From NCBI GenBank assembly GCA_011525365.1, contig WTGQ01000002.1:3745941-3809940 (forward strand): a stretch of DNA of 64,000 nucleotides. Direction: 5' to 3'. Within the stretch, counting starts at the first letter, position 1; every line of letters starts with the position of its first letter. Below are positions 48,515-61,061 of this stretch, in pieces. A program made the position numbers and the translations under genes. The notes beneath the pieces were generated by a model. The model saw only the letters and a list, made by a program, of their open reading frames with translations. It searched no databases and was not told where the DNA came from. This DNA is from Acidobacteriota bacterium (GTDB lineage: Bacteria; Acidobacteriota; Thermoanaerobaculia; Multivoradales; Multivoraceae).

Positions 48515-49122
48515 GCCGGGGCCGGCCCCACCAGCAGATCGTCCCGGCCGGCGGGGTGAAGCAGGCTCGCCGGGCCACCGCCTCGAAGACGGGCCGCGAG
48601 CCGGACGATCGGCCGTCCCTCCCGCACGAACTTCGCCTCGTAGTTCGTTCGCGGTCCTTCCGCCCAGCCGGAATCGATCCGGTCCACGTCCACCACCGGG
48701 TGCCGGGCAAGGGTCTCCGCCACCGCCTCGCCGTACTCCAGGTGGTCGGTGGCGAAGAACAGCCTTCCTCGCGGCGGATCGAGCAGCGACAGCACCAGGT
48801 CGACGGTGCGCGGGTCGAGCAGCCGCCGGCGGTGGTGCCGGCTTTTCGGCCAGGGATCGGGGAAGTAGACGTGGACCGTGCGCGCCATGCCCGCGGGCAG
48901 CAGGGTCGCGATCAGATAGAGCGCCTCGCCGCGGAGCAGGACGACGTTCGAGAGGTCACGCGACGCCGCCCGCCGCGCCGCCAGGCGGAAGTACCTGGAC
49001 GCCATCTCGACCCCCAGGAAGGGGCGGGAACCGGCGGCGGCGGCCGAGGTGACGAGAAAACGGCCCTTGCCGAAGCCGAGTTCGACTTCCCAGTCCGAGC
49101 GTTCCGCGAATGCCGCCCGCAA
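48481..49122 (-). CDS. trmB: tRNA (guanine46-N7)-methyltransferase
   Basis: EVELGFGKGRFL...VYFPDPWPK...TDHLEYGE motifs. Confidence 0.8.
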   Translation of the reverse strand: MRAAFAERSDWEVELGFGKGRFLVTSAAAAGSRPFLGVEMASRYFRLAARRAASRDLSNVVLLRGEALYLIATLLPAGMARTVHVYFPDPWPKSRHHRRRLLDPRTVDLVLSLLDPPRGRLFFATDHLEYGEAVAETLARHPVVDVDRIDSGWAEGPRTNYEAKFVREGRPIVRLAARLRGGGPASLLHPAGRDDLLVGPAPAQDPSASRTSS

Positions 49123-49190
49123 CCCGGCCCGGCAGGAGGCGAGGTCGCTGAAACCGGCGGCGCCGCGCCAAGCGAGGACCGGCGGCGCGC

Positions 49191-50246
49191 TCAGAGCAGA
49201 TCCAGCCGGCCCCGGGCCACGAGCCGCTCCACGACCTCGCGGACGTCCTGGGCCCGCTCGCGCGGCACGACGAGCACGGAGTCGCCGGTGCGCACGACGG
49301 CGAGACCCTCCACGCCGATCACCGCCACCGCGCCCTCATCCGCGAACAGCAGGTTGTCGCGGGCGTCGACGGCGAGCGTGTCTCCCACCGTCCGGTTGCC
49401 GTCTCCGTCCGCCGGCAGGGCCTCCGCCAGCAGTCCCCAGGACCCGATGTCGTTCCAGCCGCAGTCGGCCACCACGCAGCCGATCGAATCGAGCCGCTCC
49501 ATCAGCCCGTAGTCGATCGAGACCGACTCGAGGCCGGCGTAGATCTCACGGCGGCGGGCCGCGCCCAGGTCGTCCGCCGCCAGCCGTTCGATGCCGGCGG
49601 CGAGTTCCGGCAGGTGCTCGCGGTAGAGATCGAGCAGCACCGTGCCCCGGAAGAGAAAGATGCCGGCGTTCCAGAAGTGGCGGCCGCCGGCGACGAAGCG
49701 CGCCGCCTTCTCCGCGTCCGGCTTCTCCGTGAACCGCAGCACGGGCGAAACACTCAGGGGCTCGGCCGGCGCCTCGAGTTCCAGGTAGCCGTACCCGGTC
49801 TCGGGCCAGGCCGGCGCGATCCCGACCGTGACGACGTCGTGGTCGCCGCGTTCGACCGCCATGGCGCCCCGGCGGACCGCCTCGCGGAACGCGTCCTCGT
49901 CGGCCACCCAGTGGTCCGACGGCATGACCGCGATCACCTCCCGACGCGCCGCTTCCGGCATCGTCCGCACCGCCCAACCGATCGCCGGCGCCGTGTTGCG
50001 GCCGCTCGGCTCACCCAGGATGCGCGAGGAGTCGAGGCCGGGCAGTTCGGCGGCGACCGCGGCCGCGAGATCCCCGGTCGTGCAGACCCAGGTCCGCTCC
50101 GCCCCGCAGAGCGGCTCGACCCGGCGCGCGGTCGCGGCCACCAGGGAACCGCCGCCCAGCAGGTCGAGGAGCTGCTTGGGGCGACTTCGCCGGCTCAGGG
50201 GCCAGAAGCGGGAACCGATGCCGCCGGCCAGGATCAGACCGATCAT
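49191..50246 (-). CDS. manC: Mannose-1-phosphate guanylyltransferase-like nucleotidyltransferase
   Basis: MIGLILAGGIGSRFWPLSR...KQLL sugar-nucleotidyltransferase glycine-rich loop; 351 aa. Confidence 0.75.
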   Translation of the reverse strand: MIGLILAGGIGSRFWPLSRRSRPKQLLDLLGGGSLVAATARRVEPLCGAERTWVCTTGDLAAAVAAELPGLDSSRILGEPSGRNTAPAIGWAVRTMPEAARREVIAVMPSDHWVADEDAFREAVRRGAMAVERGDHDVVTVGIAPAWPETGYGYLELEAPAEPLSVSPVLRFTEKPDAEKAARFVAGGRHFWNAGIFLFRGTVLLDLYREHLPELAAGIERLAADDLGAARRREIYAGLESVSIDYGLMERLDSIGCVVADCGWNDIGSWGLLAEALPADGDGNRTVGDTLAVDARDNLLFADEGAVAVIGVEGLAVVRTGDSVLVVPRERAQDVREVVERLVARGRLDLL

Positions 50247-50253
50247 GCAGGCC

Positions 50254-50964
50254 TCAGTCGGCGGCGGCGGCCGTCCGCCCGGAGAACCAGAGGGCGACCT
50301 CGGCCAGCGACTTGCGCCGCAGGTCGGGCACCTCGCAGTCCGGCGCGGGATAGCCGACCGGGAACAGGATGAACGGCTTCTCGTTCCGCGGGCGCTCGAG
50401 GATCTCGCTCAGGAATCCCATCGGGCTCGGCGTGTGGGTCAGCGTGGCGAGCCCCATCCGGTGAAGGGCCGCGATGAACAGGCCGCAGGCGATGCCGACG
50501 CTCTCCTTCACGTAGTAGTTCTTCCGTTTCGTTCCGTCCTCGGCCACGCCGTAGAGCTCGGCGAACACGACGACGATCCACGGCACGGTGGTCAGGAACG
50601 GCTTCCGCCAGTCCGTGCCCAGCGGCTTGAGCGCCTCGAGCCACTCGTCCGGCATCCGGCCGCCGAGGTAGCTGTGCTTCTCCTCGGCCTCCGCCGCTTC
50701 GCGGATCCGCGCCTTGACCTCCGGGTCGCTCACGGCGACGAACCGCCACGGCTGGCGGTGCGCCCCCGACGGCGCGGTCGACGCCGCCTCGATCGCCCGT
50801 TCGATCAACCGTCGGGGCACCGGCTCGTCGGTGAAGAACCGGACGCTCCGCCGGCCGTCGAACTCCTCGTAGACCGCGTCGGCCCGGCGCTCCATCTCGG
50901 CCGGCTCCAGGCGCTCCGGCCGGTAGGGAACGAACACCGGGCGTTCAGGGCCGCCGCTACCCAC
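50254..50964 (-). CDS. Nitroreductase-family flavoprotein
   Basis: RRSVRFFTDEPVP...AP.SGAHRQPWRFVAV...ESVGIACGLF nitroreductase fold signature. Confidence 0.75.
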   Translation of the reverse strand: MGSGGPERPVFVPYRPERLEPAEMERRADAVYEEFDGRRSVRFFTDEPVPRRLIERAIEAASTAPSGAHRQPWRFVAVSDPEVKARIREAAEAEEKHSYLGGRMPDEWLEALKPLGTDWRKPFLTTVPWIVVVFAELYGVAEDGTKRKNYYVKESVGIACGLFIAALHRMGLATLTHTPSPMGFLSEILERPRNEKPFILFPVGYPAPDCEVPDLRRKSLAEVALWFSGRTAAAAD

Positions 50965-52045
50965 CCGCGCGCTCGAGCTCGTCCTCGACCACCTCGGCCA
51001 ACTGTTCGTAGGCGACCGCGCCGGCCAGCGGCCGGCCGTTGACGAACAGCGCCGGCGTCCCGTTCACACCGACCTCGATCCCCGCCCGGCGGTCGGCGTG
51101 GACGCGAGAGGCTGTGCCCTCCTGCTCCAGGCAGGCGGTGAACGCCTCCGCGTCGAGGCCGGCCCGCTCCGCCTTGTCCTTCAGGTCGTCCAGGGTCAGG
51201 GTGTCCTGCTCGTCGAACATCAGGTCGTGCAGCTCCCAGAAGACGCCGAGATCCTGGGCGCACACGCCGGCCTCGGCGGCGGCCTGGGCGTTGGGATGGA
51301 TGGCGTGCAGCGGGAAGTGGCGGAACACGAGCCGCACCTGCTCCGGGTACTCCTCCAGGATCCGCTCCAGCGTCGGCAGGACGCTCTTGCAGTACGGGCA
51401 CTCGAAGTCCGACCACTCGACGATCGTGACCGGCGCCGCCGCCGCGCCCCGCACAGGTCCCTCGGCCGGATCCACCTCCAGGCGGTAGGGCTCGAGCAGG
51501 TACTCGATCTCGTGGCCGTCCTCGAGCGCGTCGACGAAGCGCTGCTGCGCCAGGTAGGTCCGCACCTGGGGTTCGAGCTCTTCCCGCTCGCCCCGGATGC
51601 GCCCTTCGTTCTCCACGAAGAAGGCGTCGACGTCCTCGTCCGTGACGCCGGCTTCGAGCCGCTCCATCTCGCCCGACCGCCAGTCCGCGACCTCGAGCCC
51701 CGCGCTCTCCGCACTGGCCTGGACCAGCCGGTCGCGCACGATCCCTTCGAGCGTCCGTTCGAGCAGCCCATGACGCTCCGAGGCGACCTGCAGGTCGCAC
51801 TGGATGCGCTGCTGCTCCAGTTGATCGAGCTGCGCGGCGGCGCGTTCGAGCGCCTCGTCGTAGCCGATGTCCACGCCGTCGAGCCGCGCCGCGATCTGCC
51901 CCCCGCCCGGTTCATCCTCCTGCGCCGCCGCCCCGGATTCCGGCCGCAGCGCAAGGAAACCGATGACCGCCAGCAGGACCGCGTAGAGGGCCAGATGGAG
52001 AGCCCAGGTCGGCCGGCTCCTGTGCTCGGAAGTCTCTGTGTTCAA
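50957..52045 (-). CDS. DsbA-family thiol:disulfide oxidoreductase with N-terminal TM/coiled region
   Basis: TM anchor, long helical linker, thioredoxin fold with the CPYC active site (VEWSDFECPYCKSV). Confidence 0.75.
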   Translation of the reverse strand: MNTETSEHRSRPTWALHLALYAVLLAVIGFLALRPESGAAAQEDEPGGGQIAARLDGVDIGYDEALERAAAQLDQLEQQRIQCDLQVASERHGLLERTLEGIVRDRLVQASAESAGLEVADWRSGEMERLEAGVTDEDVDAFFVENEGRIRGEREELEPQVRTYLAQQRFVDALEDGHEIEYLLEPYRLEVDPAEGPVRGAAAAPVTIVEWSDFECPYCKSVLPTLERILEEYPEQVRLVFRHFPLHAIHPNAQAAAEAGVCAQDLGVFWELHDLMFDEQDTLTLDDLKDKAERAGLDAEAFTACLEQEGTASRVHADRRAGIEVGVNGTPALFVNGRPLAGAVAYEQLAEVVEDELERAGG

Positions 52046-52151
52046 GGTCGCCTCCTCGTGTGGCGGACTCTACCGGGAAACTGTCGGTGCGCCGGCCCTC
52101 TGGCCGGCACAAGCGCGAGCCGCGAAGCGGCGAGCCAGTGCAAGGCGACCG

Positions 52152-53138
52152 TCAGGGAGGTCCCATCAACACGTTGACCGAACTCTCGAACCCCGTCTCC
52201 GGCCGATCCCGTCGCAGACGGCGAGCCGCCAGGCCCTCGATGATCCGGCGGGGCTGAATGTACCGCTCCCGCAGCCGGTGGGCGTCCAGCAGATCCGAGG
52301 CAAGCGCCAGCGCCGCGGCCCGGTCGCTGCGGTCGTCGAGCGCACCGGCCGCCTCGGCTGCGGCGCGGGCTGCCCGGCTCCAGCCCCGCCGGGCTCGGAC
52401 GTCCTCCAGTTCCTTGCCGCCAACGGCTAGCAGTCGGTCAGCGAGACCGGCGACCCAGAGAGCGAACGCATCGTCGCCTGGACGGTTACACCAATGCCGG
52501 ACCAGTTCAGCCGTCTTCTCGTCGTCGGCCGCGCCCCCGTCTCCAGCGCCGAGATAGACGGTCAGCGAGCGGCTGCGCAGGGTCGGCAGGAGTTCCTGGG
52601 CGGACGGTGCAAGGAGCAGGAAGTGGCGGGGCGTCGCGCCGACGGGCTCCTCGAGAGTCTTCAGCAGGACATCTGGAGCCTCGTGATGCAGGGTCTGCGC
52701 TTCGGCCACGACGACCACCTGTCCGCGGGCCTCGTAGGGGGACATCTGGACTGAGTGCACCGCCTCCCTGACGCGCTCTTTCTTGATGTCACGGTCCTTG
52801 GGCTGCCGGTGAAGCACCATGACGTCAGGATGCGCGACTTCAGGCCAGGCGCCCTCCACATACCTCTTCTTGCACTGTCCGCACTTTCCCTTCTTCGGAT
52901 CCGGCGATCCCGCATCGCGCGGTTTCGACGGCGTCAGGCAGCACCCCCGCACGATCCGCCGGCAGTGCTTGCATTCGCCGCACGGCCGCGACTCCGGCTC
53001 CCGCTCGCAGAGCAGCGCCCGAGCGATCTCGAAGGCGAGATCGAGCCGAGCGTCCGGCGTCCCGCCGGAGACGATCACCGACGGATAGAGCCGCCCCTCC
53101 GCCGCGAGCCTCGGCAACTCGTCCGCCGCGCGTTTCAT
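52152..53138 (-). CDS. holB: DNA polymerase III delta' subunit
   Basis: AAA+ clamp-loader N-domain (VIVSGGTPDARLDLAFEIARALLC) with a Cys-rich zinc module; 328 aa. Start overlaps the tmk stop by 4 nt. Confidence 0.75.
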   Translation of the reverse strand: MKRAADELPRLAAEGRLYPSVIVSGGTPDARLDLAFEIARALLCEREPESRPCGECKHCRRIVRGCCLTPSKPRDAGSPDPKKGKCGQCKKRYVEGAWPEVAHPDVMVLHRQPKDRDIKKERVREAVHSVQMSPYEARGQVVVVAEAQTLHHEAPDVLLKTLEEPVGATPRHFLLLAPSAQELLPTLRSRSLTVYLGAGDGGAADDEKTAELVRHWCNRPGDDAFALWVAGLADRLLAVGGKELEDVRARRGWSRAARAAAEAAGALDDRSDRAAALALASDLLDAHRLRERYIQPRRIIEGLAARRLRRDRPETGFESSVNVLMGPP

Positions 53139-53776
53139 GCGCCGGCCGCCTGGCTCAACGGCCGCAGCAGGTCGCCAAGCGCGGCTTCGACCGTCCGCGC
53201 CACGTCGTCGATGGACCCCGTGGCGTCAATCACGCGGAAACGCTCAGGCTCGGCGGCGATTCGCTGCCCGTAAGCCTCGTGGACGCGGCGGTAGAACGCC
53301 AGGCTCTCCCGGTCGATCCGGTCGGCGGCCCCGTCGCGCCGCCGGCGCTGGGCCTCCTCCGGGGACAGCTCGAAGAACAGGGTGCGATCGGGCGACCGGC
53401 AGCCCGTGGCCAGCCGGTCGGCCTCTTCGATCGCCCCTCGCGACACCCCGCGGCCGCCGCCCTGGTAGGCGTACGTCGAGTCGGTGAAGCGGTCGCACAG
53501 GACGACGGCGCCGGCCGCGACCGCCGGTTCGATCACCTCGATCAGGTGCTGCCGCCGGCTCGCGAACACCAGCATCAGCTCCACCACGCCGTCGACCTGG
53601 GCTGCTTCCCGCCGCAGGAACAGCTCCCGCAGGAGATCGGCGAAGGGCGTGCCGCCGGGCTCGCGAGTGACCACGTGAGGGACGCGGCGGCGTTCGAGAT
53701 CCGCCGCCACGCGCTTGAGCTGGGTCGACTTGCCGCTGCCGTCAAGACCCTCGAAGGTGATGAACAGCCCTGCCAT
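53135..53776 (-). CDS. tmk: Thymidylate kinase
   Basis: MAGLFITFEGLDGSGKSTQ P-loop, DRF motif and LID region. Confidence 0.9.
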   Translation of the reverse strand: MAGLFITFEGLDGSGKSTQLKRVAADLERRRVPHVVTREPGGTPFADLLRELFLRREAAQVDGVVELMLVFASRRQHLIEVIEPAVAAGAVVLCDRFTDSTYAYQGGGRGVSRGAIEEADRLATGCRSPDRTLFFELSPEEAQRRRRDGAADRIDRESLAFYRRVHEAYGQRIAAEPERFRVIDATGSIDDVARTVEAALGDLLRPLSQAAGA

Positions 53777-53787
53777 TCCGGGTCATG

Positions 53788-55494
53788 CTAGCGCCGCGCC
53801 GGTGCTCGGGCTCGCCGCTTCGCGGCTCCCGCTCCTTGCCGGCCAGAGGGCCGGCGCACCGACAGTTGATCCGGACTCCGCAGCCGCGGCCACCGGCGTC
53901 GCAACGTCGCCGCATCGAGCCCGAGGCCCGCGGCGACCTGGGCCGCCCGCCGTTCCATGTCTTCAAGGTCGACCGGGTACGCGTTGCAGCGACGCGGGTC
54001 CAGGAGGCCGATCAGGTTCCAGCGCTCGATCGCCGGCCCGACCCACTCGGCCGGCGACCCGTTCCCGCCTTCGGCCGCCGACCGTTCGTCGAGTTCCTGG
54101 AACAGCCTGCAGCGCCCGTCGTCCGCGCCGAGGAACCCCTGCCAGCACCAGCCCTCCGTAGGCGGATCGAGGAGCCGCTGCCGCAGCTCGTCGAAGGAGG
54201 CGGCCGCGAAGTAGACCATCGCCGGCGCGGCGAACCGCTCCATGTCCGGCATGGCTCGATAAGCAGCGACGAGCAGCCGGTCGATGTGGTCCGCCTCGGC
54301 GGCCAGGAGACGCCTGTACCGCTCCAGGGGCCCATCCGCGGGCACACCCTTCCGGCAGAGGTCGGCCACCCGCTCCGCCGCGAGCAGGCTCCAGGCGATG
54401 CCGGTCGAGAACATCGGATCGGCGAAGGCGTAGCTGTGCGGCAGGAGCAGCCAGCCCCGGCCGGCGGCGCGGTCGCGGCGGTAGGCGACAGCCGATCGCG
54501 ACGCCACCGGCCGCAGCGGCGTGCTGTCCGCGAACTGGAGCGCCAGCGACGGGTACCGGTCGAGCAACGAAGCGAACATGGTCCCGGCCTCGTCGACAGG
54601 GTCCCCGGTCAGCAGGAAGCCCGCGCTCATCGATCCGTCGTCGAACCGGAGCTGGTACATCCAGCCCTCCTCCAGCAGGTGGTGCGAGGCGCTCCAGCGC
54701 TCGGGAAACGGCGAGTCCGGCCAGCCCTCGGCGCGCTCGAAGGGCGCCACGCCGGCGAAGTGCGAGTAGACCAGGCCCGTCCGCAACCGCAGCGACGCCT
54801 CCCCCGCGCCCAGGCTGGCCGCCAGCGGCGAGCCGCCCGTCGCGTCGATCAAGAGGCCGGCCTCGACGGTCCGATCGCCGGCCCGGAGCCGGACCGGGCC
54901 GCCGCCCGGGTCGCCGGGAACCGGGATCACCTCGACCGGCGTCTCCTCCCGGCAGTCCACGCCCTCGGCCCGCGCGCGCTCGAACAGGAAGCGATCGACG
55001 TCCGCCCGCAGCCACTGGTTGTCCGCCGCGTCGTCGTCGGGCGACGCGGCGACGACCAGCCGCCGACTGCTCGACGGCCCGGGCGAGAAGGCCTCGCCCG
55101 GTTCGTGCTGGTAGAAGCAGAAGCCCCGCTTGAGTCCCCGGCCCACCTCCGGTAGCCGGCGGCGCCAGCGGCCGTGGGCGGCCAGGTCCCACAGGTCGTC
55201 GAAGCCGTAGCGGACGGCCAGCCGCTCGAGAGCCAGGTTGGCAAGCGGCGTCGACGACTCGCCCAGCGCGAACCGCGGATGGCGGCCCCGCTCCAGCAGC
55301 AGCACGTCGCGGCCTTCGGCGTGAAGCGCCCGCGCCAGAATCGAACCCGCGAAGCCGCCGCCCGCGATCACGACTTCCCGACGCTCTACGTCATCCCCGT
55401 GTCGGTGCGCCGGCCTTCTGGCCGGCACTCGGCGCAAAGCGCCGACCTCCGGAAGCTCAGCCGCAGTCACCACACACCGTCCGCCGCGCCACAC
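53788..55494 (-). CDS. Flavin-dependent halogenase-family (Trp_halogenase-like) FAD oxidoreductase
   Basis: VVIAGGGFAGS dinucleotide-binding motif and GESSTP (GEATIP-like) motif; ~560 aa. The canonical WxWxIP motif is not obvious. Start may be a downstream GTG, since the ORF overlaps the rSAM gene by 38 nt. Confidence 0.65.
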   Translation of the reverse strand: MWRGGRCVVTAAELPEVGALRRVPARRPAHRHGDDVERREVVIAGGGFAGSILARALHAEGRDVLLLERGRHPRFALGESSTPLANLALERLAVRYGFDDLWDLAAHGRWRRRLPEVGRGLKRGFCFYQHEPGEAFSPGPSSSRRLVVAASPDDDAADNQWLRADVDRFLFERARAEGVDCREETPVEVIPVPGDPGGGPVRLRAGDRTVEAGLLIDATGGSPLAASLGAGEASLRLRTGLVYSHFAGVAPFERAEGWPDSPFPERWSASHHLLEEGWMYQLRFDDGSMSAGFLLTGDPVDEAGTMFASLLDRYPSLALQFADSTPLRPVASRSAVAYRRDRAAGRGWLLLPHSYAFADPMFSTGIAWSLLAAERVADLCRKGVPADGPLERYRRLLAAEADHIDRLLVAAYRAMPDMERFAAPAMVYFAAASFDELRQRLLDPPTEGWCWQGFLGADDGRCRLFQELDERSAAEGGNGSPAEWVGPAIERWNLIGLLDPRRCNAYPVDLEDMERRAAQVAAGLGLDAATLRRRWPRLRSPDQLSVRRPSGRQGAGAAKRRARAPARR

Positions 55495-56419
55495 CGGTCC
55501 CGTTCATCTCCCGGATCGCCGCGACGCGGGCATCCCGGCACGACTCGCAACCCGCCGCGACCTGACCGAGATCCCACGGATCGACCTGCACCGCCACGGA
55601 ACCCTCGGCGGCCTGCAGTCCCCCCGCCAGACACTCCTCCAGCAACGCCAGATCCGGCGGCTCGAACTCCCCGAGCCCCCGCAGCCGCTCCAGCTCCCCG
55701 TTGCCGCCGCGCACCGGAATCAGCGCCACCGACCGGGCCCCCGCGCGCGCCGCGTGGCGCACGCTCTGCGAGACCCACTTGGCCTGCTCCGCCGCCGGCA
55801 CGAAGGGCACGCCGACCAGCACGAACACCCGCAAGTCCACGGCGTCCGCGCGCAGGCGCTCCGCGGCCCGGTCGAACTGCTCCAGGGTCAACTGCTTGCC
55901 CAGCCGCGACAGCGCCTCCGGATGCGCCGTCTCCAGACCCATCGCCACCTCCAGCCGGCCCGGCAGCCGACCGGCGAAGCGGCGCACCCGCTCGTCGACG
56001 AGCCGCGGGTGGCACTCGACCACCACCCGCCGGAACCCGCCGGCGAGCCGGGCGATCGGTTCCAGGTCCGCCTCCGGCACCGCGTGCCGGTCGAAGAAGT
56101 TGCTCGCGTTGTACAGCTTGAGCTGGTCGCAGCGATCGAGGCCCGCTTCCCGGAGCAGGGCGGGAAGCTGGTCCAGCGCCGCCGCCAACTGCGCCGGCAA
56201 CGCCCCGGCCGGCGTCGGTCCGTCGATCGTGTACCGCCAGAGGTCGCAGAACACGCAGGTGAAGGGGCACTCCGCGCCGGTCAGGAAGACGGTCGCCGAG
56301 GGAGTGAACTCGCCCCCGGGGCCGCGCTCCAGTTCGACCGTCACTCCCTGTGGCCGCCACGGGTCGTGGACCGGCCTGGGCGGACGGAGCGCCCGAACCG
56401 CGACGTCCCAAGTCGGCAT
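55457..56419 (-). CDS. Radical SAM protein (small, no SPASM domain)
   Basis: CPFTCVFC (CxxxCxxC) 50 aa from the N-terminus, followed by a TIM-barrel-like region (320 aa). ATG at 56419 lies 5 nt after the stop of the AsnB-like gene. Confidence 0.75.
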   Translation of the reverse strand: MPTWDVAVRALRPPRPVHDPWRPQGVTVELERGPGGEFTPSATVFLTGAECPFTCVFCDLWRYTIDGPTPAGALPAQLAAALDQLPALLREAGLDRCDQLKLYNASNFFDRHAVPEADLEPIARLAGGFRRVVVECHPRLVDERVRRFAGRLPGRLEVAMGLETAHPEALSRLGKQLTLEQFDRAAERLRADAVDLRVFVLVGVPFVPAAEQAKWVSQSVRHAARAGARSVALIPVRGGNGELERLRGLGEFEPPDLALLEECLAGGLQAAEGSVAVQVDPWDLGQVAAGCESCRDARVAAIREMNGTGVARRTVCGDCG

Positions 56420-56424
56420 GGTCG

Positions 56425-57825
56425 CTAGGCGTAGAGCGACTGGAAGTGCCGGCGGTACTGCTCCGGGGGCCGCTCGAAGGCGGCCGCGAACACGTCCTCC
56501 GAGGCCGCCCCCTCCTGGAAGCGGCGCTTCGGGAAGACCGGGAAGTCGATGCCGAGCACCCGCTTCATGCCCCTCCGCACGACTTCGCCCTTCAACTCGT
56601 AGAGCGCTTCGTGGGAGCCGCCGACCAGAGTCGCGAAGGGAATTGCCTCGGCCACCGCGATGACGGCCGGCCGGGTGAAGGGGCTGAAGCCCTCGAAGCC
56701 GAGCAGACGGGCCGGCGCGTGGGTGCGGACGGTGGCCCGGCCAAGGCCACCCGAGTAGGTCTGGGAGTGCTTGATCGCGTCGACGCCCCAGCCTTCCTGG
56801 TAGAGCATCGAGTTGTTGACCACGCTGGTGATCGTCAGCTCGCGGTTCTCCTCCAGCGGATAGTCCTTCAGGTTCTCGTCGCCGCCGTCGCCATCGACCA
56901 GCAGTCGCCAGTCGGGGTAGCGCGCCCGGATCCCCCGCAGCAGGGCGAGGCCGACCGCGGCGCACTCGACGTCGAGCGGCTTGTAGTCCTCGATCACCTC
57001 GACCGCCCCCAGGGGATCGACGGCCGCCGCGTCGGCCTCGATCTCCTCGCCCAGCATCTCGAGGTCCATGCGGCGCAGGAACTCCCGCGCCTGCGCGGCG
57101 TCGCCGGCGCCCGCGCCGACCCGCAGGGTGAACGCCTTGAGCCGCGCGGCGCTCCGGCCCGACTCGAGCAGCGCGCGGTTGAGGGCCACCAGCACCGCGC
57201 CGCTGTCGATGCCGCCCGAGAAGCACACCCCGATCGGCTCCCGGGCGCGGTCCGCAGGCAGCGCGGCGAGCCAGCCGCGGAGTTCGAACATCAGCGCCTC
57301 GACGTAGCGCTCCCCGATCAGGTCGGGATCGGGCGGCAGCGTGCCCCGGGGCGGGTCGAAGAAGCGCTCGTGGGTCGGATTCGGATCCGGGCAGCCGACC
57401 AGGCGCAGTGTCGTCGCGTGGTGCGCCGGGACCATCCGCGTGTAGGTCGGATGGAACTGGTCGAGATAGCCCTCGGCGGCGAGGCAGTCCCTGATCTCGT
57501 CGATGCGCTGGGCGACGACCAGCATCGGCCCGGACGACTCCTTGGCCAGGAAGTAGCGCATCGGCCGGTCCAGGCTGCGGGCCATCACCACGTCCACGCC
57601 GCGACGGGCAGCCAGGGCGAACGAACCGTCGATCCCGAGCACCGCCTCGGGCCCGTCGAGCAGGCGGCCTCGCGCCTCGTCCGGAGTCAGCGTCCAGAGG
57701 CGCTGTTCACTGTCGTCGATCAGGTTGAGCACACGGGCGATGGGCTTGTCCACGGTCATTCCCTCCAGGGCCAGCAGCACGGTCCGCGCCGACACGATCC
57801 GACCACGATCGGCGGTGACCTGCAT
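56425..57825 (-). CDS. Asparagine synthetase-like ATP-PPase (beta-lactam synthetase/lasso-cyclase-like; no N-terminal Cys nucleophile)
   Basis: SGGIDS PP-loop (CFSGGIDSGAVL) and an AsnB C-domain. The N-domain is retained (GIDGSFALAARRG...) but begins MQVT, not MCG. Start moved to the ATG at 57825; the upstream ORF part is RG-rich shadow. Confidence 0.75.
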   Translation of the reverse strand: MQVTADRGRIVSARTVLLALEGMTVDKPIARVLNLIDDSEQRLWTLTPDEARGRLLDGPEAVLGIDGSFALAARRGVDVVMARSLDRPMRYFLAKESSGPMLVVAQRIDEIRDCLAAEGYLDQFHPTYTRMVPAHHATTLRLVGCPDPNPTHERFFDPPRGTLPPDPDLIGERYVEALMFELRGWLAALPADRAREPIGVCFSGGIDSGAVLVALNRALLESGRSAARLKAFTLRVGAGAGDAAQAREFLRRMDLEMLGEEIEADAAAVDPLGAVEVIEDYKPLDVECAAVGLALLRGIRARYPDWRLLVDGDGGDENLKDYPLEENRELTITSVVNNSMLYQEGWGVDAIKHSQTYSGGLGRATVRTHAPARLLGFEGFSPFTRPAVIAVAEAIPFATLVGGSHEALYELKGEVVRRGMKRVLGIDFPVFPKRRFQEGAASEDVFAAAFERPPEQYRRHFQSLYA

Positions 57826-57840
57826 GGTACTGTCCCGGCA

Positions 57841-58509
57841 ATGCCCTGGCACAGCGGGAACCGGCTCCGGACGGCGTTCTTCGTCTTGGTCGGTACAGGT
57901 GTCTCGATCACCCACATCGGCTGCCAGGCCGCGCCGGAGGAAGCCGGTCCGACCGTCATCGCCCTTGAAGTGCAGGGGCTCGGACTCGTCGACCTGCCGG
58001 ACGGCTGCACGCGGGTGGAACCCAGCCCCCATGCGCTGGAGCTCGCCTGCGAGCTCATCGAGACGACGGAAACCCCGGCGGGTCCGGTGGGCTCGATCTA
58101 TCTCGAGCTCGGCGAGCCCACCGAAGGGCACATCGAACTCGCGGACGTCTCAGCGATCGACGTCATCAGGGAGGAGCAGCGGCCGCTGTTCGAGGCGCTG
58201 CCCGGAGGCGAGTTCGTGGGCGTCGGCGGCGCGCTCTTCTACGGCCCGTTCGGAGCAGCGCGCTACGCACGCGGAAGATTCCAGGCCGAAGACGGCGCCA
58301 CGCTCCAGCGGATCCGGCTGTTCATGGTTCATCCGATGGAGAACCGGCTCGTCAACCTCGTCTACGACCATCCGCCAGGCGACAACGCGGACACGGCGGC
58401 GCGGGTCAACAACCACCTCCTCGTTCTCCTGGAGCACCTCAGGAGCTGGGAAGACATGCCCGCGGCCGACGAGGACGGCGAAGCGGCCGAGGTTCCCGCG
58501 ACGTACTGA
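57841..58509 (+). CDS. Putative lipoprotein, unknown function
   Basis: Plus-strand frame that the ORF track merged into a long shadow ORF. From the ATG at 57841: MPWHSGNRLRTAFFVLVGTGVSITHIGC... with a hydrophobic leader and Cys. 222 aa with normal composition. Divergent from the AsnB-like gene. Confidence 0.45.
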   Translation: MPWHSGNRLRTAFFVLVGTGVSITHIGCQAAPEEAGPTVIALEVQGLGLVDLPDGCTRVEPSPHALELACELIETTETPAGPVGSIYLELGEPTEGHIELADVSAIDVIREEQRPLFEALPGGEFVGVGGALFYGPFGAARYARGRFQAEDGATLQRIRLFMVHPMENRLVNLVYDHPPGDNADTAARVNNHLLVLLEHLRSWEDMPAADEDGEAAEVPATY

Positions 58510-58608
58510 CGGCCGGCGCACCGGCGGCAGATGCCGTAAACGTGGGCCAGAAGGCCCACGCCACGGCCGGCGCACCGACAATCTCGGCGTCCCCGGAGGC
58601 CGCTGAGC

Positions 58609-59751
58609 GTGTTCCGCGCGCCCTGGCTCGCCGACGAGGACGAGCTGCTCGCACCGGAGCCCGACGAGCCCGAAACGCCGCGGCGTTGGCCGCCGCGCTG
58701 GTTCCGTTCCGGCCGCCGGGTCGGGCCGAAGACCCTGGCCGTCTTCAGCCGCCAGTTGGCGGTCCTGCTGGACGCGGGCCTGCCACTGCTTCAGGGCCTG
58801 GACATCCTGAGCATCCAGGGCCAGCACGCGGGGCTCCGCGCCATCCTGCTGGAGGTCCGCTCCGAGGTCGAAGCGGGGGCCGGCCTCGCCGAAGCGATGA
58901 AGCGCCGCCCCCGGGCCTTCAACGACCTCTACGTGAACCTGGTCGCCGCGGGCGAGGCCAGCGGCGCTCTCCACCCCGTGATGGACCGTCTTGCCACGCA
59001 CATCGAGAAGGTGGCGAAGCTCCGCAACCAGGTCCGCTCCGCCCTCACCTATCCGGCCGCCATTCTCGCCGTCGCCTCCGCGGTCGTGTTCCTCATCCTG
59101 TGGAAGGTAATCCCCGTGTTCCGGCACCTGTTCGCCGACCTCGGCGGCGACCTTCCCTTCCTGACCCGGCTGGTGGTCGGCGTCAGCGAGTTCATCGGCG
59201 CCTACGTGCTCGTTCTGCTGGCGGGCGCCGCCGCGACGGTGTTCGCGGCGAGGCGGCTGCTCCGCACCCGTCAGGGCCGCCAATGGGCCGACCGGCTGGT
59301 GCTGCGGCTGCCGCTGGTCGGCAAGCTGCTGCAGCGGATCGTCGTGGGCCGCGCCTGCCGCACTCTCTCCGTCCTGCTGGCCTCCGGCATACCGATCCTC
59401 GACGCACTGAAGACCACCGCCGGCGCGGCCGGCAACACGGTCGTCTCCGAGGCCCTCGAGACCGTCCGCGGCGAGGTCGAGCAGGGCGGCTCGATCCACG
59501 CCGCGCTGCGCCGGACGAACGTCTTCCCGACGATGCTGTGCCAGATCGTCTACGTCGGCGAGCAGACCGGCAAGCTCAGTCCGATGCTCAACCGCGTCGC
59601 CGACTTCTACGAGGAGGAGGTGGACACCGATGTCGACAGCCTGATGAAGCTGCTCGAGCCGGCGCTCATCACGATCCTCGGCGTCGTCATCGGCGGCATC
59701 GTCATCTCGATGTACCTGCCGATGTACTCCGCGTTGACGCGGATCGGCTAG
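58609..59751 (+). CDS. gspF: Type II secretion / type IV pilus platform protein (GspF/PilC family)
   Basis: Two T2SSF repeats and three TM helices; 380 aa. Confidence 0.85.
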   Translation: MFRAPWLADEDELLAPEPDEPETPRRWPPRWFRSGRRVGPKTLAVFSRQLAVLLDAGLPLLQGLDILSIQGQHAGLRAILLEVRSEVEAGAGLAEAMKRRPRAFNDLYVNLVAAGEASGALHPVMDRLATHIEKVAKLRNQVRSALTYPAAILAVASAVVFLILWKVIPVFRHLFADLGGDLPFLTRLVVGVSEFIGAYVLVLLAGAAATVFAARRLLRTRQGRQWADRLVLRLPLVGKLLQRIVVGRACRTLSVLLASGIPILDALKTTAGAAGNTVVSEALETVRGEVEQGGSIHAALRRTNVFPTMLCQIVYVGEQTGKLSPMLNRVADFYEEEVDTDVDSLMKLLEPALITILGVVIGGIVISMYLPMYSALTRIG

Positions 59752-59852
59752 CGCCCCGAAACGCCTCGCAGGCTCGGTGTTTCGGCCCATCCCGTCCGCA
59801 CGGCGGAGCCCGCGCCCCGAACTTGCTTCGCTGCGTTCCGCGGCGCAGGCTC

Positions 59853-61061
59853 CTAGAGGGGCAGCACCTCGCAGGACTCCCCGGCCACGGCCGGGGCGCT
59901 GAACTTCGGCACCCGCACCAGGCCCGAACCTGCTCCGTACGCAACCAGGTCGTGGGAGCCCAGCGGCGGCCGCGGGTCGACCAGCACTTCGCCGGACGAG
60001 ACCTCCAGCCGGCACGGCAGGAACCGGTCCCGGCCTTTGGCGAACGGCAGGTCTCCCTTGAGCCTCCCGCGGAGCGCTCCCCGCCAGAAGCCGTCGGCAA
60101 TGCCGGCCATCCGCCGAAGCAGCGGCCGCACCAGGAGCCAGTAGGTGACCATCGCCGAAGCGGGGTTGCCGGGAAGGCCGAACACCCATCCTCGATCATG
60201 GCGCGCCGCCACCAGCGGTTTCCCCGGCTGGATCGCGACCGCGTCGAACAGGATGCGGCAGCCCAGGCCGGTGTCGCCGAGAACCTGCTCGACGAAGTCG
60301 AACTCGCCCATGGAAACGCCGCCGGAGATCAACAGCACGTCGGAGTCCAGCCCGCGCTCGACCTTGGCGCGTAGCTCGTCCGGGTCGTCGCGGGCGATGC
60401 CCAGGGATCGAGCCTCGATGCCGAGCTGTGCCAGCGCGGCGCGGAGGAAGTCACGGTGGGAGTCGCGGAGCTGACCGGGACCGGGTTCAGCCTCGGCGGG
60501 GACGACCTCGTCGCCGGTGGAGAGCGTGGCGACGGTCGGGCGGCGGTAGACCGGCGCTTCGTGGATGCCGTGGGTCGCCAGCACGCCGGCGCCGCCGGGG
60601 GTCAGCAGTTCACCCTCCGCGAGCAGTGGCCCGCCGGCAGCCGTGACTTCGGCCTGGCGGCGGATGTGGCTTCCCGCCGGCACCGTCTCCACGATGCGGA
60701 GGGTGCCCGTGCCTGCGTCGCCGGCCTCGAACTCGGTCTGTTCGATCGGGATCACGCGGTCGGCGCCGGAGGGTGCGGGCGCTCCGGTCATGATCCGCAG
60801 GGCAGCGCCGGAGAGGAGTTCCGCTCCGGGAGGGTCGCCGGCGGCGACGATGCCGTCGACCGGCAGCGTGCCGCCCGCCTCGACATCGCCGCCAAGCGCG
60901 AAACCGTCCATCGCCGAGACGTCGTGGGCAGGCACGTCGACGGTCGCGGTCAGGTCCTCGGCGAGGACCCGGCCGACCGCAGCGGCGCGCGCCACCTGTT
61001 CGATGCCGAGCGTTTCCGCCTCCGTGGCGATGGCGGACCAGGCGTCTTCGGGAGAGAGCAT
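59853..61061 (-). CDS. moeA: Molybdopterin molybdenumtransferase
   Basis: MoeA N-terminal, MoCF-binding (GGVSMGEFD) and C-terminal domains; 402 aa. Confidence 0.85.
   Translation of the reverse strand: MLSPEDAWSAIATEAETLGIEQVARAAAVGRVLAEDLTATVDVPAHDVSAMDGFALGGDVEAGGTLPVDGIVAAGDPPGAELLSGAALRIMTGAPAPSGADRVIPIEQTEFEAGDAGTGTLRIVETVPAGSHIRRQAEVTAAGGPLLAEGELLTPGGAGVLATHGIHEAPVYRRPTVATLSTGDEVVPAEAEPGPGQLRDSHRDFLRAALAQLGIEARSLGIARDDPDELRAKVERGLDSDVLLISGGVSMGEFDFVEQVLGDTGLGCRILFDAVAIQPGKPLVAARHDRGWVFGLPGNPASAMVTYWLLVRPLLRRMAGIADGFWRGALRGRLKGDLPFAKGRDRFLPCRLEVSSGEVLVDPRPPLGSHDLVAYGAGSGLVRVPKFSAPAVAGESCEVLPL

Follow-up and report, generated by a model that had tools for sequence, protein, structure and literature searches.

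Glutaminase-less enzymes of the asparagine synthetase B (AsnB) superfamily have, to our knowledge, been described to date in the chemistry of beta-lactams, carbapenems, lasso peptides, and hydroxamates. Lasso cyclases of the McjC type are AsnB homologs that lack the glutaminase Cys and use an acyl-adenylate to make an amide (isopeptide) bond. Together with sactisynthase-like radical S-adenosylmethionine (SAM) enzymes and peptide halogenases, they are peptide-modifying enzymes; nucleobases are also frequent substrates of PP-loop enzymes. Here, we describe three adjacent genes in a 64,000-nucleotide (nt) stretch of DNA from an Acidobacteriota bacterium (assembly GCA_011525365.1, contig WTGQ01000002.1; G+C content ~72%), hereafter the window. 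Read along the minus strand, the genes encode an AsnB-like ATP pyrophosphatase, a radical SAM protein, and a homolog of flavin-dependent halogenases, hereafter the flavoenzyme (Table 1).

Components of this trio have counterparts in several characterized systems. RaSEA strips the lysine carrier from preQ0-lysine during archaeosine synthesis, and its gene is paired with arcS (PMC11298593). QhpG hydroxylates peptidyl-Trp and acts together with a radical SAM enzyme (PMC7876137). Among flavin-dependent halogenases, the K87A variant of PltM is inactive and the primer sequence A-C-G-I-K-L-G-F-S-F places this Lys in its motif (PMC6424973), and the catalytic lysine of CtcP is Lys98 (PMC12400496). Like the ArcS-RaSEA system, the trio tightly pairs a radical SAM gene with the gene of a group-transfer enzyme. 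However, the partner is an AsnB-type adenylating enzyme rather than a TGT-like ArcS, and no tRNA-related features were found. As in QhpD/QhpG, a radical SAM enzyme is accompanied by a flavoprotein of halogenase fold, but a SPASM domain is missing from the radical SAM protein and no genes for a QhpC-like peptide or dehydrogenase were found among the neighbors. In contrast to McjC-type systems, a comparison of gene context revealed no leader protease or precursor in 80 loci recovered by scanning one genome per GTDB species; RiPP (peptide made by the ribosome and modified after translation) recognition elements (RRE) were not searched specifically.

Each of the three enzymes belongs to a known superfamily, but membership in the AsnB, RaSEA, and QhpG families failed. 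The combination of enzymes, the range of phyla in which it occurs, and its association with CRTAC1-like proteins are described neither in curated families nor in the searchable literature; no curated family, solved structure, or searchable publication was found that assigns a function to the trio. A published sponge study of a ‘halogenase plus AMP-binding’ arrangement proved to be unrelated. Family and full-text literature searches revealed no named pathway, in agreement with the original prediction, which was made from the sequence of the window alone, and no known housekeeping pathway, a match to which would have refuted that prediction. We tentatively propose that the trio is a conserved, undescribed cytoplasmic module of a small-molecule pathway that joins glutamine-independent amide or lactam formation to radical chemistry and ring halogenation.

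Conservation of the module across phyla

Synteny was counted only in loci with enough downstream DNA. The radical SAM gene was directly downstream of the AsnB-like gene in 63 of 74 loci, and the flavoenzyme gene came next in 45 of 60. By phylum, the two counts were 25/25 and 20/21 in Acidobacteriota, 11/12 and 9/9 in Gemmatimonadota, 8/8 and 4/7 in Bacteroidota, 15/19 and 10/16 in Planctomycetota, and 2/8 and 1/6 in Verrucomicrobiota. The module was also found between unrelated flanks. Because the same order recurs in so many loci from five phyla, the arrangement is far beyond chance; the trio is not a chance juxtaposition, and its order is kept in at least five phyla. Conservation of the gene neighborhood in other genomes had been named as a check on the original prediction, and the co-occurrence is strong.

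The window shares 95% identity with Candidatus Multivorans (Acidobacteriota, Thermoanaerobaculia). Other carriers were identified among the Vicinamibacteria, Acidobacteriaceae, Gemmatimonadota, Planctomycetota, Verrucomicrobiota, and Bacteroidota (Rhodothermales, Balneolaceae, Chitinophagaceae, and Bacteroidales), and in one ‘Deltaproteobacteria’ metagenome-assembled genome (MAG). Identity to the window was highest for the AsnB-like protein (51–70% between phyla), followed by the radical SAM protein (35–55%) and the flavoenzyme (30–47%). A neighbor-joining tree of the AsnB-like protein largely tracks phyla, with Bacteroidota nested among Planctomycetota, and no plasmid homologs of its gene were found. 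Collectively, these observations indicate that the module is old and mostly vertically inherited, and that the AsnB-like enzyme is its core and the third member is optional. The module does not show the sporadic behavior of a ‘tailoring cassette’, the candidate role in the original prediction.

More than 8000 homologs of the AsnB-like protein were identified, most of them 440–447 amino acids (aa) in length and covering 94–95% of the 466-aa query. Among 1.8 billion representatives of 50%-identity clusters, 681 proteins reached an E-value of 1e-3, and the main body of the family corresponds to one representative. The family is a compact, isolated clade, and NCBI labels its members only as ‘asparagine synthase-related protein’. 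Two database entries in which the AsnB-like protein seems fused to the radical SAM protein (P0012, 708 aa; P0131, 761 aa) were rejected as evidence of a complex, because both are frameshifted or garbled gene calls on contigs of high G+C content. More distant relatives (loci L084–L088; 35–46% identity) occur in uninformative contexts, including beside a phosphoglucomutase gene. Two of these (L085:5533-8014 and L086:3144-11658; 35–39% identity) are without radical SAM and flavoenzyme partners; one of the two is on an apparently archaeal contig and adjoins a gene for a fused AsnC/NirD-L-type helix-turn-helix protein, and the other follows an operon for a Liv-type amino-acid ABC transporter, on its downstream side, and overlaps the gene of a 782-aa protein without a Pfam family.

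Sequence features of the three enzymes

All three open reading frames (ORFs) are present in the ORF listing of the window at the minus-strand positions originally described, and are listed with their motifs in Table 1. Residues are numbered in the 444-aa form of the AsnB-like protein and the 568-aa form of the flavoenzyme. Five nucleotides separate the stop of the AsnB-like gene from the start of the radical SAM gene, as previously noted. The reported 38-nt overlap between the radical SAM and flavoenzyme genes exists only if GTG 55494 is the flavoenzyme start; a GGAGG precedes the alternative start, TTG 55437, by 8 nt, and with that start the genes are separated by a 19-nt gap.

Table 1. Positions in the window of the three module genes, their diagnostic motifs, and a deiodinase-like neighboring gene.
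Feature	Position	Strand	Evidence or remark
AsnB/beta-lactam-synthetase-fold ATP pyrophosphatase without glutaminase machinery, 444 aa	56425..57759	-	Start by orthologs; ORF extendable to 57825 or 58131
PP-loop SGGIDS, residues 181–186, ATP pyrophosphatase signature	57202..57219	-	S181, G182, G183, D185, S186 invariant in family alignment
GDGGDE, residues 290–295, aligned to AsnB ‘GEGSDE’ synthetase-site motif	56875..56892	-	Profile alignment to human ASNS; G290, G292, G293, E295 invariant
Radical SAM protein, 320 aa, distant relative of TIGR01210/RaSEA family	55457..56419	-	
CPFTCVFC, residues 51–58 (CxxxCxxC, SAM-binding [4Fe-4S] cluster; C51, C55, C58)	56246..56269	-	Invariant in 17 homologs
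C-terminal CxxC-21-CxxC (C291, C294, C316, C319), not SPASM	55463..55549	-	All four Cys invariant in homolog alignment
PltM/CtcP-type flavin-dependent halogenase homolog	53788..55494	-	PDB phmmer and Pfam Trp_halogenase; 568 aa from GTG 55494, 549 aa from TTG 55437
GGGFAG (GxGxxG, dinucleotide/FAD binding)	55345..55362	-	Kept as G[SAG]G[FLP]xG in all aligned orthologs but one
GLKRGF, Lys122 = PltM Lys87 / CtcP Lys98	55120..55137	-	HMMER: ‘GLKRGFCF’ vs PltM ‘GIKLGFSF’, CtcP ‘GQKSNFGF’
GWMYQLRF, degenerate WxWxIP counterpart	54643..54666	-	Aligned to PltM GWLWVIPF, CtcP GWMWIIPF
FADPMFSTG (FxxPxxSxG of flavin halogenases)	54400..54426	-	Aligned to FIDPLFSRG in PltM and CtcP; kept in orthologs
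Iodotyrosine deiodinase (halotyrosine dehalogenase) homolog, 236-aa ‘nitroreductase’	50254..50964	-	5ko7, E 1.3e-84

The AsnB-like protein carries the SGGxDS PP-loop, as stated in the original prediction, and the two-domain fold of AsnB and beta-lactam synthetase (BLS), and thus belongs to the AsnB superfamily (N-type ATP pyrophosphatase, PF00733 fold; Pfam Asn_synthase, E 6e-10). Its PP-loop domain, accompanied by a remnant of the AsnB N-domain, belongs to the AsnB and not the TilS/QueC/ThiI type. That the protein is not an ordinary AsnB was also upheld: it scored 33.5 bits against the AsnB equivalog TIGR01536 (cut-off 267.1), which places it outside class II AsnB. The start of the gene, in contrast, required revision. 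The original prediction placed it at ATG 57825 (MQVT), but ATG 57759 (MTVDK), 22 codons further inside, is most likely the true start, because orthologs are 440–447 aa long and align only from ‘M..KPIARV’. The distance to the divergent lipoprotein gene at 57841 is then 81 nt rather than 15 nt. No Met-Cys start occurs anywhere in the ORF, whichever start is chosen, and together with the sub-cut-off score and the start of the orthologs this eliminates an ordinary AsnB with an overlooked Cys.

The first ~80 residues of the N-terminal nucleophile (Ntn) glutaminase half, including Cys1, are absent from the AsnB-like protein. Only approximately 45 residues precede its ‘GxFAL’ motif, compared to ~125 in E. 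coli AsnB. The protein is thus an AsnB-superfamily enzyme of two domains, of which the N-domain is truncated and non-catalytic, and, because the whole N-terminal glutaminase apparatus is missing, it cannot take ammonia from glutamine. It also differs from AsnB and human ASNS in its remainder: the family profile aligned with human ASNS and E. coli AsnB over the PP-loop region only (E 1e-12 to 1e-9), and the C-terminal substrate-binding half of true AsnB did not align. Matches to BLS (E 3e-5, PP-loop only), TsnB9 (4e-4), and CarA (5e-3) followed, that to BLS being weaker than those to true AsnB, and the region of the BLS catalytic Tyr-Glu dyad was outside the aligned stretch. In contrast to BLS and CarA, with which similarity is confined to the PP-loop, members of the family are ~444 aa rather than 503–513 aa in length, are found in five non-actinobacterial phyla with mostly vertical inheritance, and have no clavam or carbapenem partners (e.g., CarB/CarC) among their recurrent neighbors.

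The radical SAM protein shows the two hallmarks of its superfamily, the CxxxCxxC motif and a TIM barrel (partial or complete), although it barely passed PF04055. As originally described, it is a 320-aa protein without a SPASM domain; no SPASM or twitch domain was matched in Pfam. A C-terminal pair of CxxC motifs, not mentioned in the original prediction, is a probable Zn or auxiliary metal site, possibly a zinc ribbon or an auxiliary cluster. The nearest curated family, TIGR01210/RaSEA, was matched at 48.2 bits against a cut-off of 212, so that the protein falls outside RaSEA, and JGI names its orthologs ‘archaeosine synthase beta-subunit’. A fold search with the model of the protein returned generic barrels, with queuine lyase among the top matches and no RaSEA chain among the matches.

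Four of the five sequence criteria of a PltM/CtcP-type halogenase are found in the flavoenzyme. It matches Pfam Trp_halogenase (E 1.7e-13), and its best matches in a phmmer search of the PDB were CtcP (1.3e-33), PltM (4.9e-33), and CmlS (4.5e-17), followed by CndH, RadH, and PltA. All PDB matches with E < 0.001 are named halogenases except 3nix, an unnamed flavoprotein/dehydrogenase; weaker matches cover only the FAD fingerprint. The alignment to PltM and CtcP, the best solved relatives (E ~1e-33), covers the FAD domain and continues into the helical region at the C-terminus. Like these enzymes, the flavoenzyme keeps the GxGxxG motif, FxxPxxSxG, and the catalytic Lys, which the original prediction had left to be checked; its ‘KRGF’ is invariant in all 47 sequences (the window and 46 orthologs from fetched loci). 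It differs from PltM and CtcP in its altered WxWxIP and in its location outside a polyketide or pyoluteorin-type cluster. The GxGxxG and GESSTP motifs previously reported are present, and in place of a clear WxWxIP there is GWMYQLRF; orthologs have W-x-[W/Y]-x-[L/I, mostly L]-[mostly R, sometimes P] at this position, with the first W invariant. By its sequence, the flavoenzyme is thus equipped as a phenolic-type halogenase, except that one motif is weakened. Its best NCBIfam match was QhpG (NF049967), at 63 bits against a cut-off of 240, which leaves it outside that family.

Genes adjoining the module

Recurrence of neighbors was evaluated by all-against-all clustering of ORFs from the loci. 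Only two further recurrent neighbors were identified, namely FG-GAP/UnbV_ASPIC (CRTAC1-like) proteins and an RnfD/NqrB-like membrane protein. Genes of the former were present in 29 of the 80 loci (L011, L013–L015, L019–L026, L031, L037, L038, L041, L048, L051, L056, L059, L063, L064, L067, L068, L072, L074, L079, L080, and L082). In ~21 of these, from Gemmatimonadota, Acidobacteriota, Bacteroidota, and Chthoniobacterales, they are directly adjacent to the module (<300 bp). The proteins occur in a form of ~570–610 aa and a TPR-fused form of ~1110–1210 aa (e.g., L063: 3357-6875, 10847-12673, and 13588-15306). Their sole solved relative is human CRTAC1, and they are presumed to be Sec-exported or secreted. 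No FG-GAP/ASPIC gene is present within the 64-kb window itself.

The RnfD/NqrB-like membrane protein (PF03116) is a stand-alone protein of ~290 aa encoded between two ASPIC genes in 10–11 loci (L020:10818-11696 on the minus strand, with equivalents in L011, L015, L021, L037, L038, L056, L059, L063, L068, and L080). In the typical layout, seen in L063 and L011, a divergent ASPIC gene (~1170 aa) is followed by the trio, an ASPIC gene (~600 aa), the RnfD-like gene, and a further ASPIC gene (~570 aa). An integral membrane protein alongside an UnbV-type protein is reminiscent of the UnbV/UnbU pair of enediyne cassettes. The recurrence of secreted FG-GAP/UnbV_ASPIC proteins beside the module suggests an extracytoplasmic destination or partner.

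In the window, the trio opens a minus-strand string of eight tightly packed genes (49061-57759) that continues with tmk, holB, and genes for DsbA-like, iodotyrosine deiodinase (IYD)-like, and ManC-like proteins. A single terminator-like hairpin was found in this string, at 49078-49061. Because no such site occurs earlier, the trio may be co-transcribed with the five downstream genes. The flanking tmk, holB, and divergent lipoprotein genes are as originally described. The tmk-holB pair also follows the trio in L003–L007, L010, and L022, and is inverted in L004 and L005. The putative lipoprotein (222 aa, 57841-58509 on the plus strand; signal peptide ending in THIGC; no Pfam family) is kept beside the module only in the close relatives L003–L006, L009, and L010.

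The IYD-like gene is three genes downstream of the flavoenzyme gene in the same terminator-free string, and its product also matched mammalian IYD (3gb5; E 7e-58). This neighbor is present only in the close relatives L003, L004, L005, and L010, and is possibly an accessory gene of the module, although the link is weak. In two Bacteroidota loci, the module adjoins a chorismatase gene (FkbO/Hyg5-type, a source of hydroxybenzoate).

One Bacteroidales MAG (L074: 365-1540, 11005-12408, and 12410-14443) encodes the AsnB-like/radical SAM pair without the flavoenzyme. The pair is flanked there by genes for a chorismatase (FkbO/Hyg5-like plus RidA), a protein with an HZS-alpha domain, and a beta-propeller/MauG-like dihaem cytochrome c peroxidase. 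Elsewhere, L077 also has the chorismatase, L051 has both the HZS-like gene and the MauG-like peroxidase, and L052 has the HZS-like gene.

A search of the gaps between genes in eight loci, and of 57745-57850 in the window, detected no conserved small ORF or precursor peptide, consistent with the earlier failure to find a precursor. Accessory genes of RiPP pathways (leader protease, ABC exporter) were not recurrent in the 80 loci; RRE domains were not among the specific searches. Rfam returned no riboswitch or other RNA match in positions 49000-61000 of the window or in nine diverse loci.

Proposed function and competing explanations

The product of the proposed small-molecule pathway is probably a metabolite with an electron-rich aromatic (phenol-type) ring. 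A small-molecule substrate is suggested by the absence of a precursor, the cytoplasmic nature of the enzymes, and the relationship of the flavoenzyme to the free-phenol branch of halogenases. In such a pathway, the AsnB-like enzyme would adenylate a substrate carboxylate, and the activated carboxylate would be captured by free ammonia, an amine, or an amine of the same molecule to yield an amide or lactam. The radical SAM enzyme would abstract hydrogen from a C-H bond of the same scaffold, possibly as a C-N lyase or in a rearrangement. Where present, the flavoenzyme would use FADH2, O2, and halide to halogenate the activated ring, or would hydroxylate it if halide chemistry has been lost. Among these elements, action on a small molecule has the strongest support, followed by amide or lactam formation via an acyl-adenylate, halogenation or hydroxylation of the ring, and finally RaSEA-like C-N cleavage. 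The chorismatase and halotyrosine-dehalogenase neighbors weakly fit a scaffold derived from hydroxybenzoate or tyrosine.

Several observations weigh against this proposal. Halogenation by the flavoenzyme is not certain because its WxWxIP motif is degenerate, and the chorismatase and IYD links were each observed in few loci. No flavin reductase or exporter was consistently linked among the recurrent neighbors, nor did a regulator stand out among them, although no search was aimed at regulators. The AsnB-like gene occurs alone in many Verrucomicrobiota and Planctomycetaceae loci, with no recurrent alternative partners beside it, and the flavoenzyme is missing in Bacteroidia. Coupling of the three steps is therefore not obligatory, at least where adjacency is concerned. 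In addition, conservation of the AsnB-like protein at the level described above, with a single 50%-identity cluster, is unusually high for secondary metabolism and, like the phylum-tracking tree, is more in line with a core role in physiology than with a cassette for a natural product.

A core function is accordingly the alternative that survives best, although we consider it unlikely. The AsnB-like enzyme might be an ammonia-dependent amidotransferase (e.g., a glutaminase-less asparagine synthetase), or the module might contribute to a cofactor, lipid, or envelope component of the Acidobacteriota, Gemmatimonadota, and the Planctomycetes-Verrucomicrobia-Chlamydiae (PVC) and Fibrobacteres-Chlorobi-Bacteroidetes (FCB) groups. 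Beyond cross-phylum conservation and the tree, the chromosomal location of the gene without plasmid copies, its uninterrupted string with tmk and holB here and in relatives, and its occurrence alone are consistent with such a role. However, the protein has no NCBIfam or Pfam equivalog and no description in the searchable literature, and its C-terminal substrate-binding half does not align with true AsnB. The tmk-holB linkage is confined to one lineage group, and a halogenase-type partner and secreted FG-GAP neighbors fit no known core pathway.

Maturation of a peptide or protein is also improbable, and ranks next. The target would be a RiPP precursor or protein-bound cofactor encoded elsewhere, possibly the FG-GAP/UnbV_ASPIC proteins themselves, on which the AsnB-like enzyme would form an isopeptide, macrolactam, or C-terminal amide, the radical SAM enzyme would install a cross-link, and the flavoenzyme would halogenate or hydroxylate an aromatic residue. 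All three enzyme classes recur as peptide modifiers, QhpG is the best NCBIfam match of the flavoenzyme, and FG-GAP/ASPIC genes adjoin the module in ~21 loci of four phyla. Nevertheless, the QhpG match is far below its cut-off, and neither a conserved small ORF in or beside the module nor a SPASM/twitch domain nor a recurrent protease or ABC exporter was found, with RRE again outside the specific searches. The FG-GAP proteins are large and presumed to be Sec-exported, which makes them unlikely substrates for cytoplasmic enzymes dependent on ATP, SAM, and FADH2, and the window lacks their genes altogether.

A more specific version of amide formation, which we regard as doubtful, is that the AsnB-like and RaSEA-like pair carries out a glutamine-independent amidation of a carboxylate analogous to that of ArcS-RaSEA, with a lysine-type donor and C-N cleavage, and together with a genuine halogenase makes a halogenated metabolite. 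The ligase would adenylate the substrate and join it to an amino acid (lysine, for example) through the amino group of the latter, and the radical SAM enzyme would then cleave the C-N bond of the donor to leave a primary amide (or amidine) on the product. The outcome would be a widespread, vertically inherited pathway, in Acidobacteriota, Gemmatimonadota, Planctomycetota, and their relatives, to a halogenated metabolite that is possibly handed to the secreted CRTAC1-like proteins.

That the module modifies a nucleic-acid base (tRNA or DNA) in a manner related to archaeosine synthesis is very improbable. RaSEA is the best family match of the radical SAM protein and informs the JGI name of its orthologs, its top fold matches include queuine lyase, nucleobases are common substrates of PP-loop enzymes, and tmk and holB adjoin the trio in this lineage. 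Yet the RaSEA score is less than a quarter of the cut-off, the recurrent neighbors include no ArcS/TGT or queC-F genes, and the PP-loop domain is of the AsnB type. Moreover, the isoelectric points of all three proteins are acidic to neutral (median 5.8–6.5), which argues against nucleic-acid substrates. Finally, fortuitous adjacency of three unrelated genes, conceivable in that bacterial gene order can be coincidental and tmk and holB are functionally unrelated, is refuted by the recurrence of the same order and tight spacing in 45–63 loci of five phyla, including loci with entirely different flanks.

If the small-molecule module that we tentatively favor makes a defined product, a function would be available for a gene set that is abundant in major phyla of soil, sediment, and aquatic environments whose biochemistry is poorly studied. 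If true, this would add a new reaction type for glutaminase-less AsnB enzymes and would represent the first bacterial role of a RaSEA-like radical SAM enzyme. The invariant lysine of the flavoenzyme suggests that enzymatic halogenation may be much wider, and more ‘physiological’, than one would gather from natural-product clusters. A first handle on the large family of CRTAC1-like (FG-GAP/UnbV_ASPIC) proteins of bacteria would likewise come from their tight association with the module.

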